The notes below the pieces were generated by a model. It ran no database searches. It was not told the DNA's origin and saw nothing but the letters and a program-made list of their open reading frames with translations. Shown here in pieces: positions 1-62,590 of a stretch of 64,000 nt of DNA (positions are counted from its first letter, which is position 1; every line of letters starts with the position of its first letter). The stretch is from positions 2,112,001-2,176,000 of the forward strand of contig OZ245742.1 of the NCBI GenBank assembly GCA_965227295.1, read 5' to 3'. A program made the position numbers and the translations under genes. The stretch comes from Leptonemataceae bacterium (GTDB lineage Bacteria > Spirochaetota > Leptospiria > Leptospirales > Leptonemataceae).

Positions 1-858
1 CTCGTCGGACTCAAGGCCACGTTCGGTCGCGTGTCGGAGGCCGGGGCGGCGCCGCTCTGCTGGTCCGTGGCCCACGTCGGTCCGCTGGCCGCCACTGCCG
101 CGGATTGCGCGCTGGCCTACGCCGCCTTCGCCGGGCCTGACAGTCTGGATCCCGTGAGCATGCGCCAGCCGTTGCCGGAGTTCGGCGCGGCCTTCGAAAA
201 AAACAGCGTGCGCGGCATTCGCATCGGCGTCTTCGAGCCGTGGTTTCGCCACGCAGACTACGATATCGTAAAAGCTAACGAAGAAATGTTAAAGGTTTTT
301 GAGCAGAACGGGGCTCGCCGCCGAAAAATCGTCATCCCGCACTTGAATTCCCTGCGCGTCGCCCATACGGTCTCCATCGCCAGTGAAATGGCCGCCTCTT
401 TCGAGGACGAGTACAAACGCCACCGTACGGACTTCGGCCTGGACGTGCGCGTGAACCTGGCCGTGGCGCGCACGTTTACCAGCCGCGACTATGTGCGGGC
501 CCAGCGCATTCGCACGCGGGCCATGGCCGACTTCGCCCGCGCCTTCTACGAGGTGGACGCCATTGTTACACCCGCCACGGCCATCACGGCGCCGCCGATT
601 CGGCCGGACGCCGTCGCCGCCGGCGAGTCCGATCTCGAAACGCTTTCGCATACCATGCGCTTCGCCGTACAATCGAACATGACCGGCCACCCGGCCATCG
701 TCTTTCCCGTAGGTTACGATCAGCGCGGCTTACCGATTTCCATGCAGATCATCGGCCGGCACTGGGACGAGGCGTTGCTGTTGCGCATGGCCCGGTTTGC
801 CGAGGCCTACGTGCCGCGCAAGAAACCGCGGACCTGGTTCTCGTTGCTGGAAGGATGA
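1..858 (+). CDS. Amidase-signature family enzyme (5'-truncated by window edge)
   Basis: Frame open from base 1: LVGLKATFGRVS...HVGPLA (amidase-signature region), DAIVTPATAITAP, NMTGHPAIVFPVG...GLPISMQIIG typical of the family. Confidence 0.9.
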   Translation, partial: LVGLKATFGRVSEAGAAPLCWSVAHVGPLAATAADCALAYAAFAGPDSLDPVSMRQPLPEFGAAFEKNSVRGIRIGVFEPWFRHADYDIVKANEEMLKVFEQNGARRRKIVIPHLNSLRVAHTVSIASEMAASFEDEYKRHRTDFGLDVRVNLAVARTFTSRDYVRAQRIRTRAMADFARAFYEVDAIVTPATAITAPPIRPDAVAAGESDLETLSHTMRFAVQSNMTGHPAIVFPVGYDQRGLPISMQIIGRHWDEALLLRMARFAEAYVPRKKPRTWFSLLEG

Positions 859-876
859 TCACTGCCTGGATTGAAT

Positions 877-1747
877 CCGCCGCGAACCGCAGCTCTTGAA
901 TTACCGGAAACTTTTATTCGTTCGAGTGCGCCCCGAATCGTAGTGTAAGTTGCGGCCAGTGTGTATTAAGACTTGTATGGGTACGGCTGGTTCCAGCCGA
1001 CGTACGGAGGTTATGCCGGGGAGCGTGGTAAGGCGGACCGGAACGGCGTCGTCGCTGCAAGAATCGCTCCGGTAGCTGCGTCGCAAATCCGCGTCCGGGT
1101 CGATGCGGACAATCTTAACAAAACGAAAACCCACAACTCCCGCTTCGCCGTAGCAAAAAGATCCCCTTCACCATTGCGCGACTTACTTCATGTTTCTCAC
1201 GCCAACCGCCGCGAACCGCAGCTCTTGAATTCCCGGTTGCGCATTGGTGGTTCGAGCATGCCCCGGATCGTGATGTAAGTGGCGGCCAGTTTATATTAAG
1301 ACTTTTTTGGGTACGGCTGGTTCCAGCAGATGAACGGAGGTCATGCCGGGGAGCGTGGTAAGGCGCACCGGAACGGCGTCTTCGCCGTAAGAAACGGTAC
1401 GATAGCTGAGTCGCAAACCGGCGTCCGGGTCGAATCCCGCGTTCTTTGCAAAACGACATACCACAACTCCGAAGAGCCGTAACCAAATAAACCCCTTCAC
1501 AATTCCGCAACTTACTTCCTGTTTCTCACGACGACGGTAGCGAACCGCGGCTCCTGGATTACCGGAAAGCTTTATTCGTTTGAGCACGCCCCGAATCGTG
1601 GTGTAAGTAGCGGCCAGTGTACATTAAGCCTTTTATGGGCACGGCTGGTTCCAGCAGATGAACGGAGGTTATGCCGGGGAATGTGGTAAGGCGCACCGGA
1701 ACGGCGTCTTCGCCGTGAGAATCGCTAGTCGCAAACCGGCGTCCGGG
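877..1747. repeat. Tandem array of about 2.6 diverged 329-bp non-coding units
   Basis: Units start at 877, 1206, 1535 (exact 329 spacing). Shared blocks include GCGAACCGC, GTAAGTNGCGGCCAGT, ACGGCTGGTTCCAGC, GTGGTAAGGCGSACCGGAACGGCGTC. About 17 mismatches in the first 100 nt between copies 1 and 3 (counted by eye). Confidence 0.95.
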
Positions 1748-60443: not shown

Positions 60444-60454
60444 ACGTCCTCCGC

Positions 60455-62590
60455 TTACTTGACGGCGACGCCGTCCGGCGCATCCACGCAAACGTATTCG
60501 CCGTGAAATCCTAACTGTAAATCACCGTACATTACGTGGCCGGCCGCGGTCTTGACGTCCAGTTTCTGATAGTCCTTGATGCTCGCCTTCGCCTTCGGCA
60601 CGACGGCGATGTTACCGAAGTGCAGCGTCGTGCCCACGGGAATTTCTCCCGGGTTCAGAAGCCGGGCCTTGCCGTCGGCTCCGTCGGCGGCCAGCAGCAT
60701 GCCCGCGGACTCGATGCCGCGTAGCTTTGCCGGCTTCAAGTTCGCGAAGAGCACGACGTGGCGGTCTCTTAACTCTTCGGGAGTGTAACTTTGTTTGAGG
60801 CCGGCACAGACCGTGCGTTCGTCCCGGCCGGTCTGGATCTTCAGCACGTAGAGCGCGTCCGCCTCCGGATGGTCGGCGACTTCGACGATCCGGGCCACGC
60901 GCAGGTCCAGCTTCGAGGCCGGGTCTCCGGCCGCCGGTTGGGCCTTGCCTTCGCCCTTGTGTTTCTTCGCAGCATCCGCGGATTTGTCCTCGGGGGTGTC
61001 TTCCTGGATGCGCGGAAAAAGCGCGTCCTTTTTCGCCAGGCTTTCGCCGCCGTTTAACACGCCCCACTCAAGATCGTTCCGCACCGGTGCACGATCCTGG
61101 CCGAGCATCGCCAGGCCCGCGACGGTTTTTTGCGGCATTACAGGATGCAGAAGACACAGGGCCAGACGCAAGGCCTCGGCGGCGTGAAAGAGCACGGTAC
61201 CCAACTCGGCCTTGAGCACGGCGTCGCCGTCGCCCGGGGCGGCTTCTTTCAATCGCTTCGCCATTTGCCAGGGTGCCCGCTGTTCCAGATAACGATTCAC
61301 GCCCCGAACCAGTCCGGCAACTTCTTCAAGCGCGAACGAAAGCTTCATGGATTCGACGAGTTCGATGCACTTTGTCTTCGCCGCGACGGCGAGTTCGCGC
61401 AACTCGACCTCGGCCTTGCCCACGGTGGCCACGGGCTTCGTTAACTTTCCCTCGAAGTTAGTTAATACGAACTTGTTTACACGATTGATGGCGTTGCCGA
61501 GATCGTTGGCCAGGTCGGTGTTCGTGCGTGAGACGAACAGATCATGCGACCAGGTGGCGTCCTGACCGAGGACCATGTCGCGCATTAAGAAGTAGCGCAC
61601 GGTGTCGGTGCCGTATTGATCGGCGTAGCTGTCGGGATCGATGACGTTGCCCGTGGTCTTGGACATTTTTTCGCCGCTGCCGGCCTTCGCGGCCGGGCTT
61701 TGCGCGAGCCACCAGCCGTGAGCCAGGATGTGTCGCGGCAACGTGCGGCCCATGCCCATGAGCATGGTCGGCCAGTATACGGAGTGTGTAGTTAAGATGT
61801 CCTTGCCGATGACGTGAAAGTTCGCCGGCCAGGCCTTGCTGCCGTCGGGAAACGTTTTGTCTAACACACCGCTTTCGTAATTTAAGAGGGCGTCGAACCA
61901 AACGTAGGTTACGAAGTCCTGGTCGAAGGGCAGGGGGATGCCCCATTCGAGCCGTGACTTCGGCCGACTGATGCACAGATCCTGTAAGGGCTGACGCAAG
62001 AATCCCAGGACCTCGTTGCGGCGAAACTCCGGTTGAATGAAGTCCGGGTTGTCTTCGATGTGCTTGATGAGCCGATCCTGGTACGAGCCCATCTTGAAGA
62101 AGTAGTTCTTTTCTTCCAGCCACTCCACCGGTCGCCCGCTGATGGGGTCTTTGCCGTCCACCAGTTCGTCGTCGCTGAAAAAACGCTCCTCGCTGACGGA
62201 GTACCAGCCGGCGTAGGTTTCTTCGTAGATTTCACCACGATCATACAATTCTTGCAATGACTGTTGCACGTAACGTACGTGATCTGCGTCGGTGGTGCGA
62301 ATGAAACGATCGTATTCGATGTTCAGCTTTTGCCAGAGATCCTTAAAACGTACGTGAAACTCGTCGACGTGCGCCTTCGGATGGACGCCGCGTTTCGCCG
62401 CGGCCTGCTGGACCTTTTGTCCGTGTTCGTCGGTGCCCGTAAGAAAGAACGTGTTGTATCCGAGCAACTTGTGAAAGCGCGTGAGTACGTCCGCCAGAAT
62501 CGTCGTGTACGCGTGACCGATGTGCGGCCGATCGTTGGCGTAGTAGATCGGCGTGGTGATGTAGAAATTCTTTGCTTTGTCCGCGGACAT
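60455..62590 (-). CDS. metG: Methionyl-tRNA synthetase with C-terminal tRNA-binding OB domain
   Basis: PHIGH, GTDEHG, YVWFDAL, KMSKT, HPEADALY...NLKPAKLRGIESAGM. Confidence 0.97.
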   Translation of the reverse strand: MSADKAKNFYITTPIYYANDRPHIGHAYTTILADVLTRFHKLLGYNTFFLTGTDEHGQKVQQAAAKRGVHPKAHVDEFHVRFKDLWQKLNIEYDRFIRTTDADHVRYVQQSLQELYDRGEIYEETYAGWYSVSEERFFSDDELVDGKDPISGRPVEWLEEKNYFFKMGSYQDRLIKHIEDNPDFIQPEFRRNEVLGFLRQPLQDLCISRPKSRLEWGIPLPFDQDFVTYVWFDALLNYESGVLDKTFPDGSKAWPANFHVIGKDILTTHSVYWPTMLMGMGRTLPRHILAHGWWLAQSPAAKAGSGEKMSKTTGNVIDPDSYADQYGTDTVRYFLMRDMVLGQDATWSHDLFVSRTNTDLANDLGNAINRVNKFVLTNFEGKLTKPVATVGKAEVELRELAVAAKTKCIELVESMKLSFALEEVAGLVRGVNRYLEQRAPWQMAKRLKEAAPGDGDAVLKAELGTVLFHAAEALRLALCLLHPVMPQKTVAGLAMLGQDRAPVRNDLEWGVLNGGESLAKKDALFPRIQEDTPEDKSADAAKKHKGEGKAQPAAGDPASKLDLRVARIVEVADHPEADALYVLKIQTGRDERTVCAGLKQSYTPEELRDRHVVLFANLKPAKLRGIESAGMLLAADGADGKARLLNPGEIPVGTTLHFGNIAVVPKAKASIKDYQKLDVKTAAGHVMYGDLQLGFHGEYVCVDAPDGVAVK

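Follow-up and report, generated by a model that had tools for sequence, protein, structure and literature searches.

Why should tetranucleotides that are scarce in a GC-rich chromosome recur in pairs at one exact distance? The question is raised by a 64,000-bp stretch of the genome of a Leptonemataceae bacterium (NCBI GenBank assembly GCA_965227295.1, contig OZ245742.1, positions 2,112,001 to 2,176,000; 60.4% GC), which we call the window and from which the motif counts are taken unless another source is named. An original prediction had proposed a dispersed code of the form YTAA-N17-YTAR, with half-sites 21 bp or two helical turns apart, at about one site per 3 kb. We find that such paired sites do exist with exactly this spacing, but that they are only the strict subset of a wider core, TAA-N17-YTA, which raises the density to about 1 per 1.6 kb. 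The motif is a previously unreported split palindrome, best grouped with the genome-wide over-represented DNA signals and operator-like in its architecture. Tentatively, we read it as a place where an abundant, two-fold symmetric protein docks by recognising the sequence.

A split palindrome with an exact 17-bp spacer

The predicted scarcity of YTAR tetranucleotides is borne out by three models: 168 are present (TTAA 76, CTAA 55, TTAG 34, CTAG 3), against 628 expected from base composition, 383 from a first-order and 225 from a second-order Markov model. A naive expectation for any one lag is therefore 168^2/64000 = 0.44 pairs. The autocorrelation instead has 20 pairs at lag 21, none at lags 19, 20 and 22 and one at lag 23; the in-phase neighbour lags 18 and 24 are empty, and nearly all remaining lags up to 120 hold 0-2 pairs. 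All 20 pairs originally listed have the sequence given for them and together make up the complete lag-21 set. The four one-mismatch sites (268, 6104, 38996 and 60511) and the third TA at +7 or +14 in five named sites were also recovered as described, and the smaller excess foreseen at lags 7 and 14 is present but slight (3 and 5 pairs; lag 8 has 3). Separately, CTAG is nearly missing from the window (3 copies, against 43 expected from the second-order Markov model and 229 from base composition), and one of its three copies sits in the motif site at 41556.

We then tested every combination of two trinucleotides (64 x 64) at lags 6-63 without regard to the motif, taking the expectation from same-codon-phase lags. 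Just five pairs reach p<1e-6, every one a facet of the same motif: TAA..TTA at lag 20 (27 vs 2.06), TAA..TAA at lag 21 (21 vs 1.83), TAA..CTA at lag 20 (9 vs 0.53), TTA..TAA at lag 22 and TAA..ATT at lag 19. The self-complementary class, TAA-N17-TTA, accounts for 27 of the 39 loci (2.0 expected), TAA-N17-CTA for 9 (0.5 expected) and the mirror class TAG-N17-TTA for 3 (0.5 expected), and no enrichment is seen in the window when a half-site is replaced by GTA, ATA, TAC or TAT. TAA-N17-YTA thus occurs 36 times on the + strand and, with the reverse-complement class, at 39 loci, 37 of which are independent because three sit in copies of one tandem repeat. The spacer is sharply defined (N16 = 1, N17 = 36, N18 = 9), and there is no signal one helical turn shorter (N6/N7 = 5 and 4) or longer (N27/N28 = 4 and 3).

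The excess does not stem from the encoded proteins. When synonymous codons were permuted in the 51 genes, keeping protein and per-gene codon usage and leaving intergenic DNA unchanged, lag-21 YTAR pairs fell to 3.95 ± 0.98 (max 8, n=500) and core loci to 11.5 ± 2.0 (max 20, n=300); with shuffling confined to 60-codon blocks, core loci fell to 13.7 ± 2.5 (max 21). In dinucleotide-preserving shuffles the strict motif gave 2.26 ± 1.87 two-strand matches (max 7, 100 shuffles) against 33 observed, and the core 9.69 ± 3.82 (max 24) against 66. Since the excess outlives shuffling with protein and codon usage held constant, the DNA rather than the protein carries the signal, as had been proposed; together with the empty lags 18 and 24, these controls show that it is an effect neither of AT-rich patches nor of rare-codon clusters. 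Neither of the outcomes set in advance against the lag-21 excess, namely no surplus over lags 19-23 or a sufficiency of AT patches, was observed.

The consensus reads Y-TAA-S-W-W, about 9-11 less constrained bases, then W-W-S-TTA-R, with a footprint of 23-25 bp. The outer base is C, T or G on the left and A, G or C on the right; within a half-site, position -1 is Y, +3 is not A and +4/+5 are T, and the commonest hexamer is TAACTT (9/54 half-sites). Flanks outside the 25-bp unit carry no sequence information. The spacer is AT-enriched (GC 0.48 vs 0.61 in the flanks) and has a surplus of inner TA steps, 12 at +5/+16 and 10 at +7/+14 where about 2 are expected in each case, but spacers are otherwise unrelated, with on average 4.9/17 bases identical and the three tandem-repeat copies as the sole exception. 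Two further structures were rejected. A hairpin or cruciform would need complementary interiors, and only 0-4/8 inner positions are complementary; a strict 7-bp lattice is contradicted by inner TA steps being as frequent at +5/+16 as at +7/+14, and was kept only in the form of interleaved or overlapping sites. Lag 14 is raised (N10 = 11 vs about 2.3), as is lag 7, and two loci have TA at 0/14/21/35. These paired interleaved sites, at 41542-41580 in ArgJ and 59879-59917 in the TrmO/SpoU gene, share the string TAGAWTCTAATGCT; their spacers are 11/17 identical, which is within the range of random 17-mers.

Partners of BTAA at lag 21 are also enriched beyond the core, namely TTAC (11 vs 1.5), TTTG (12 vs 1.8) and TTTA (6 vs 0.9), as is YAAA-N17-TTTR (6 vs 1.1), whereas the single-base variants TTCG, TTGG, TCAA, TGAA, TTGA and TTCA show no enrichment with BTAA at this lag. 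With the degenerate classes counted there are 63 sites, about 1 per kb, and degeneracy of this kind is typical of natural binding sites. It also bears on a non-biological origin of the pattern, through assembly or polishing artefacts or altered sequence. In its favour are the striking exactness of the spacing and an odd evenness of the strict site classes (3,3,3,3,3,4,1), but the degeneracy looks natural (GTAA, TTAC and TTTG classes), CTAG is avoided, sites interleave, and the methionyl-tRNA synthetase (MetRS) of the window matches a database protein without a single difference in 711 residues (100% identity). We know of no sequencing error mode that yields paired 4-mers 21 bp apart, and consider such an origin highly improbable.

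Placement relative to genes, codons and strands

Sites occur in + genes, - genes and intergenic DNA and in different codon registers, in agreement with the original prediction. The coding fraction of the window is 92%, and 32 of the 39 loci are wholly intragenic, 20 in + genes (42 kb coding) and 12 in - genes (17 kb coding). Codon phases 0 and 1 are used, phase 2 only where TAA is the gene's own stop (50903 and 14675). The half-sites contain 25/95 in-frame TTA codons and 6/34 CTA codons; with about a quarter of the window's rare TTA codons spent on the motif, selection becomes directly visible. Distances between sites have a coefficient of variation (CV) of 1.00, that is, random scatter, which rules out regular spacing.

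The two strict sites examined in an alignment of 12 MetRS sequences are formed by TTA codons for Leu residues common to most of the 11 homologues, and neither coincides with an indel, so that a 7-residue insertion or mini-element was rejected. Spacer similarity is limited to the three tandem-repeat copies, contrary to what a dispersed repeat, a miniature inverted-repeat transposable element or a repetitive extragenic palindrome would give. A by-product of protein or codon structure (Leu heptads, TPR or HEAT repeats, AT patches), of a dispersed repeat or of a mini-insertion could draw on the several sites in TPR/HEAT genes and on a mild N17 bump in unrelated genomes (see below). It is contradicted by the shuffle controls, by the empty lags 18 and 24, by the use of two codon phases as well as intergenic DNA, by unrelated spacers and by the intact MetRS sites, and is hardly credible.

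The proposed strand polarity is weak. TAA-N17-CTA outnumbers its reverse complement 9 to 3 (binomial p = 0.15), and only a narrower, post hoc contrast is skewed, right-hand CTAA (8) against left-hand TTAG (0), which is suggestive. Polar words of the Chi or KOPS/AIMS type (FtsK-orienting polar sequences; architecture-imparting sequences) show a strong strand skew tied to replication direction; here 27 of the 39 loci are self-complementary, and the window holds neither origin nor terminus at which a skew would switch.

Two short elements about 17 bp apart also recall the -35/-10 geometry of promoters, and the motif could be a promoter-like element for some sigma factor, giving pervasive internal promoters. 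Some intergenic sites lie closely upstream of genes (24776, 36162, 26924), and in each copy of a 330-bp tandem repeat a site directly precedes a conserved foldable segment. Promoters of the sigma-70 type would tolerate spacers of 16-18 bp, end the -10 element in T and stand upstream of genes; here only N17 is enriched, offset 27 is A6 C7 G4 T3 (T in 3/20), 27/39 loci are palindromic and the 32 intragenic loci follow no orientation rule relative to the gene. A sigma-70 scan of 800-2200, which includes the repeat, gave 0 promoter-like matches. We judge this explanation very unlikely.

The repeat itself is intergenic (877-1727; period 330 bp, 2.6 copies, 81% identity). In every copy the core site GTAAGTnGCGGCCAGTnTnnATTAA is conserved, and behind it comes a stretch of ~140 nt, also well conserved, whose consensus fold is a long hairpin structure (39 pairs, 1 compensatory). 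It has no Rfam match even at E<=1, and is possibly a small-RNA gene cluster.

Table 1 Sites of the motif in the window. Strict, YTAA-N17-YTAR pair class; core, wider TAA-N17-YTA; degenerate, probable degenerate site, with the form of those marked - given as read on that strand. The strand cell is empty where no strand is given.
Position	Strand	Class	Form	Context
268..292		core	GTAA-N17-TTAA	amidase gene; extra CTAA at +7
709..733	-		GTAG-N17-TTAC	amidase gene; weakest member, may be chance
945..969		core	GTAA-N17-TTAA	intergenic, copy 1 of 330-bp tandem repeat
1275..1299		core	GTAA-N17-TTAA	tandem-repeat copy 2
1603..1627		core	GTAA-N17-TTAA	tandem-repeat copy 3
3582..3606	+	degenerate	CTAACTT-N14-TTTG	
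4542..4566		core	CTAA-N17-TTAT	TonB-dependent receptor gene; chain TTAC 4507/TTAA 4528/CTAA 4542/TTAT 4563
6104..6128		core	CTAACTT-N11-GAAGTTAC	hypothetical gene
9341..9365	-	degenerate	GTAA-N17-TTTG	intergenic
9388..9412		strict	TTAA-N17-TTAG	intergenic, two P-II genes on either side
9840..9864	+	degenerate	CTAA-N17-TTTA	
10511..10535		core	TTAA-N17-TTAC	ammonium transporter gene (-)
12391..12415		strict	TTAA-N17-TTAG	glycosyltransferase gene (-)
14675..14699		core	CTAA-N17-TTAT	across VKOR/DsbA stop and lumazine synthase start
14889..14913	-	degenerate	GTAA-N17-TTTG	
16032..16056		strict	TTAA-N17-TTAG	TPR gene; two TTA Leu codons
16465..16489	+	strict	CTAA-N17-CTAA	TPR gene; TTAC at +7; GCT/AAR junctions
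17634..17658		strict	CTAA-N17-TTAG	TPR gene
20547..20571		strict	CTAA-N17-TTAG	HEAT-repeat gene
22626..22650		core	ATAA-N17-TTAA	hypothetical gene
22792..22816	-	degenerate	GTAA-N17-TTTA	
22883..22907	-	degenerate	GTAA-N17-TTTG	
23569..23593	+	degenerate	CTAAGTT-N14-TTTG	
23799..23823		core	GTAACTT-N14-TTAG	DUF2064/GT2 gene
24776..24800	+	strict	CTAA-N17-CTAA	intergenic, 12 nt ahead of 24812 start
25388..25412	-	degenerate	GTAA-N17-TTTG	
25402..25426	-	degenerate	GTAA-N17-TTTG	14 bp from 25388
26135..26159		strict	CTAAGTT-N11-AAAGTTAA	adenosine-deaminase-like gene
31418..31442	+	degenerate	GTAA-N17-TTTA	
31997..32021	+	strict	TTAA-N17-CTAA	tubulin-like gene
32513..32537	-	degenerate	GTAACTT-N14-TTTA	
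32642..32666		strict	TTAA-N17-TTAA	tubulin-like gene; CTAC at +7 and +14
33641..33665		strict	TTAA-N17-TTAA	tubulin-like gene
34190..34214	+	core	GTAAGTT-N14-CTAT	tubulin-like gene
36553..36577	-	degenerate	CTAA-N17-TTTG	
38996..39020		core	GTAA-N17-TTAA	SpoIIE phosphatase gene (-)
39884..39908	+	degenerate	GTAACTT-N14-TTTG	
41542..41566	+	core	GTAA-N17-CTAA	ArgJ gene (-); first of interleaved pair (TA 0/14/21/35)
41556..41580	-	strict	CTAG-N17-TTAG	interleaved with 41542
44832..44856		strict	CTAA-N17-TTAA	OmpA/PD40 gene
45841..45865		strict	CTAA-N17-TTAG	ABC-F ATPase gene
47179..47203		strict	TTAA-N17-TTAA	methyltransferase gene (-)
48107..48131	-	degenerate	GTAA-N17-TTTG	
49533..49557		core	TTAA-N17-TTAC	RecG gene
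49965..49989		core	GTAA-N17-TTAG	RecG gene
50903..50927	+	strict	TTAA-N17-CTAA	first TAA is RecG stop codon, remainder intergenic
53669..53693	+	degenerate	CTAA-N17-TTTA	
57114..57138	-	degenerate	CTAA-N17-TTTG	
58413..58437	+	strict	TTAA-N17-CTAA	large TPR gene
59326..59350	+	core	GTAACTT-N14-CTAA	TrmO/SpoU gene (-)
59879..59903	+	strict	CTAA-N17-CTAA	TrmO/SpoU gene (-); first of interleaved pair (0/14/21/35)
59893..59917	-		GTAG-N17-TTAG	interleaved with 59879; spacer 11/17 bases as in 41556
60511..60535		core	CTAA-N17-TTAC	MetRS gene (-)
60769..60793	+	degenerate	TTAA-N17-TTTG	MetRS gene
61441..61465		strict	TTAA-N17-TTAA	MetRS gene (-); two TTA Leu codons, no indel vs homologues
61861..61885		strict	CTAA-N17-TTAA	MetRS gene (-); TTA codons are Leu236 and Leu244
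63778..63802	-	degenerate	TTAACTT-N14-TTTA	

What might read the motif

The docking-site reading, which we favour while regarding it as a little more open to doubt than to belief, starts from geometry. With exactly 21 bp between them, the two TA steps face the same side of the helix, where each half-site would be contacted by one head of a rigid protein, either a dimer or two dimers joined as a tetramer. The AT-enriched interior and its additional TA steps make it probable that the protein would bend or wrap this DNA. The sites would be maintained in any gene, frame or strand, and at any place on the chromosome, by selection acting on the DNA itself, and the price would be rare TTA/CTA codons and specific codon junctions. 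Density, random scatter and indifference to genes point to a chromosome-wide function over gene regulation, and we infer a protein reader with a role in chromosome organisation, compaction or segregation rather than in the control of individual genes. Several points weigh against this. Both the reader and its binding are inferred by us, from one 64-kb window; the symmetry is imperfect, since the right half-site is CTA in nine loci while the mirror class has three; the random scatter, and an intragenic share of 32/39 against 92% coding, suit drive-type signals equally well; and the one Leptonemataceae locus among the 80 used for comparison, L046 at 31% GC, is without N17 enrichment (41 vs 40.3). 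The last point may have a rationale in base composition. In AT-rich relatives chance alone would supply such low-information sites (in L046 about 1 per 0.5 kb), whereas in a lineage of 60% GC it would give only about 1 per 25 kb, so that selection would have to hold the sites and they would become visible.

Known genome-wide words offer the first comparison. Uptake signal sequences and DNA uptake sequences (USS/DUS), Chi, KOPS and the cyanobacterial highly iterated palindrome HIP1 are contiguous 5-12-mers. The window motif resembles them in density (about one site per 1-2 kb), in lying scattered through the coding DNA of either gene strand and in several reading frames, and in being kept against codon preference; it differs in being split by a 17-bp largely free spacer, in being mostly palindromic and in its weak polarity (9:3). 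High density, random scatter, intragenic location and an excess of perfect sites are features of uptake sequences, and a self-recognition or uptake-type word spread by molecular drive, through an uptake, recombination, repair or packaging machine, would account for about 1 site per 1.0-1.6 kb at random, for sites within genes of either strand and in more than one frame (39 loci per 64 kb, 32 intragenic), and for perfect sites being far commoner than most one-mismatch variants. Such a word would gain ground through the more frequent uptake or recombination of the DNA that bears it, and not by serving to organise the chromosome. However, a USS/DUS core consists of about 9-12 contiguous bp, while here the information lies in two 3-4 bp half-sites with weak adjacent positions on either side of a free spacer, unlike the known contiguous signals, and no competence or related genes were found in the window. 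We therefore consider molecular drive rather unlikely.

A bipartite site with a fixed nonspecific spacer, read by a rigid two-headed protein, is the hallmark of Type I specificity subunits, and the motif might be the target of a bipartite modification or restriction-like enzyme or, as a core site, of a site-specific recombinase, its over-representation being a side effect. The form of the site, and the strong depletion of YTAR otherwise (168 vs 225-628 expected), would fit. Known Type I sites are asymmetric, with spacers of about 4-9 bp and methylated adenines, though, whereas here the spacer is 17 bp and the site mostly symmetric; restriction targets are usually avoided in genomes, and the motif is enriched 14-fold. 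No restriction-modification or recombinase gene was found in the window, and an enzyme target seems to us distinctly unlikely.

The docking-site reading has its closest counterparts among dimer- and tetramer-read sites. The matS, SlmA-binding (SBS), Noc-binding (NBS) and parS sites are compact palindromes of 12-16 bp, in tens of copies confined to chromosome domains. Like those of MatP, SlmA, Noc and ParB, which are dimer-read, the window sites are dispersed and palindromic, but they are split by exactly 17 bp without spacer conservation, and their density would extrapolate to thousands of copies per genome. NikR-type tetramers read half-sites about 16 bp apart in operators that stand singly in front of regulated genes, one or a few per genome; short inverted half-sites with a free spacer (TAA-N17-TTA, 27 vs 2.0) are a likeness of architecture only, as the window has 39 loci in 64 kb, 32 of them intragenic. 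No ribbon-helix-helix or NikR gene was seen in the window. The CtrA box, TTAA-N7-TTAA, also places TTAA half-sites at a fixed whole-turn spacing in GC-rich genomes, but its spacer of 7 corresponds to one turn, and N6 and N7 are at background here (5 and 4 vs 36 for N17); CtrA sites lie near promoters and the origin and are alphaproteobacterial, whereas the window lineage is Leptospirales-like.

Nucleoid proteins that read DNA shape are a further candidate. HU/IHF-type proteins kink DNA at roughly ±4 to 6 bp from the dyad, and IHF sites are asymmetric and mostly intergenic. A positioning signal for such a protein, or for a histone-fold protein, with TA kinks two turns apart, would match the spacing of 21 bp, the AT-enriched interior and the additional TA steps at about that distance (±4 to 6 bp) from the dyad, and IHF, HU and bacterial histones share with the proposed reader a footprint of about 25-35 bp, a bendable AT-rich interior and abundance on the chromosome. 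The exact N17 and base-specific half-sites nevertheless exceed shape readout. A shape reader should tolerate ±1 bp, yet N16 = 1; it should accept any TA 4-mer, yet ATAA, TTAT, ATAT and GTAC contexts are unenriched. The soft ~10-bp period of AA/TT/TA steps and the arrays of nucleosome-type positioning are also missing, with random inter-site spacing and no signal at lags 10, 11, 20 and 22. Major chromatin proteins of Leptospira are reported to include histones (PMC10627809), but the Leptospira histone HLp is reported to bind DNA without sequence specificity and to wrap about 60 bp (PMC12701072), which weakens the histone candidate of the original prediction. On balance we hold a shape-reading origin to be unlikely.

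Taken at its widest, the docking-site reading would make the motif an undescribed chromosome-wide split-palindrome code, with TTAA-like half-sites exactly two helical turns apart. Selection at codon junctions and synonymous positions would have kept it in a lineage that became GC-rich, its reader would be a rigid nucleoid protein with two heads and of a family not yet known or assigned, and the chromosome would bear thousands of copies. We advance this wider proposal with a little more reserve than the docking site itself.

Gene content, other genomes and significance

The gene content of the window is that of an ordinary bacterial chromosome, with 51 genes called: amidase, TonB-dependent receptor, adenylate cyclase, AmtB with two P-II genes, lumazine synthase, NusB, TPR and HEAT proteins, LexA, a 1273-residue tubulin-like protein, DHODH, SpoIIE, ArgJ, an ABC-F protein, RecG, NhaA, spermidine synthase, a TrmO-SpoU fusion, MetRS and a two-component pair among them. 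Scans of the 64 kb for tRNAs and Rfam families gave no match. The tubulin-like gene (31099-34920) encodes a Tubulin_2 domain (PF13809, E = 3.4e-46) and has four core sites inside; as for an internal duplication as a possible source of sites 32642 and 33641, the regions around them are only weakly alike (E = 0.011 when the two sequences are compared directly). A SpoU rRNA/tRNA methylase domain and a TrmO N-terminal domain are joined in a single open reading frame (58878-60491, - strand). Upstream of lexA (26947-27570), the region 26800-26946 contains TAATTTTTTCATTTTA at 26810 and two CTAA copies at lag 14, starting at 26910 and 26924; no SOS box was identified in it. After the identical protein, the next-best MetRS matches among 5.8 billion proteins are at 66% identity or below, and the few named relatives, at 60-67%, are metagenome-assembled genomes of Leptospirales/Leptospiraceae, from which a Leptospirales-like lineage, a sparsely sampled one, is a reasonable assignment.

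For comparison we used 80 loci (L001-L080; 1.31 Mb) among the matches listed in a MetRS search of genome contigs, with MetRS identity <=62% among those matches, mostly Fibrobacter. Pooled over these loci, TAA-N17-YTA occurs 625 times against a mean of about 555 at same-phase spacings, the highest value of N5-N35; this mild bump is probably the i/i+7 hydrophobic periodicity of helices. A few loci stand out marginally, among them L060 (Bdellovibrionales; 24 vs 11.5) and L010 (9 vs 2.5), and L060 has two half-site chains at 0/21/42. Where lag-21 counts are high in L030, L031, L043, L065 and L077, they reflect conserved repeats, heptameric or in tandem, which are a different phenomenon.

These repeats are of three kinds. 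A Fibrobacter-type conserved heptamer-based element, CTAAGCT CTAAGTT CTCTCAA CTAAGCTCTG, lies 20-170 nt upstream of long open reading frames including metG (L031 9919-9943, 19234, 20775 and 15475(-); L030 3011 and 3383; L043 9804 and 14549(-)); its CTAA at 0/7/21 has the geometry of some window sites, but its spacer is conserved. Intergenic CTAANNN/TTAGNNN heptamer arrays occur in unrelated phyla, including Omnitrophota and Lentisphaeraceae (L077 7450-7660 and 19362; L062 4235 and 15631; L022 5436; L008 8265; L071 4281). Finally, L065 has at 14804-15344 a tandem array with a 129-bp period, each unit of which contains TTAGAGCGGGTTGCCAGGGCATTAG, a 25-mer bounded by TTAG.

No description of a TAA/TTAA-N17 motif was found in the full-text literature searched, in which subscription journals are not covered and parentheses and subscripts are not searchable. 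Chi, KOPS, uptake sequences, matS and HIP1 have each, as genome-wide words, opened a piece of chromosome biology, and among such words a split palindrome with an exact 17-bp spacer is unusual in form. If a reader protein exists, the motif would be a ready bait for it, with N16 and N18 spacings as built-in controls. More generally, a shift in base composition could reveal binding sites that are hidden in AT-rich relatives and, if the proposed reading is true, the motif would represent a new class of bacterial chromosome-organising signal.

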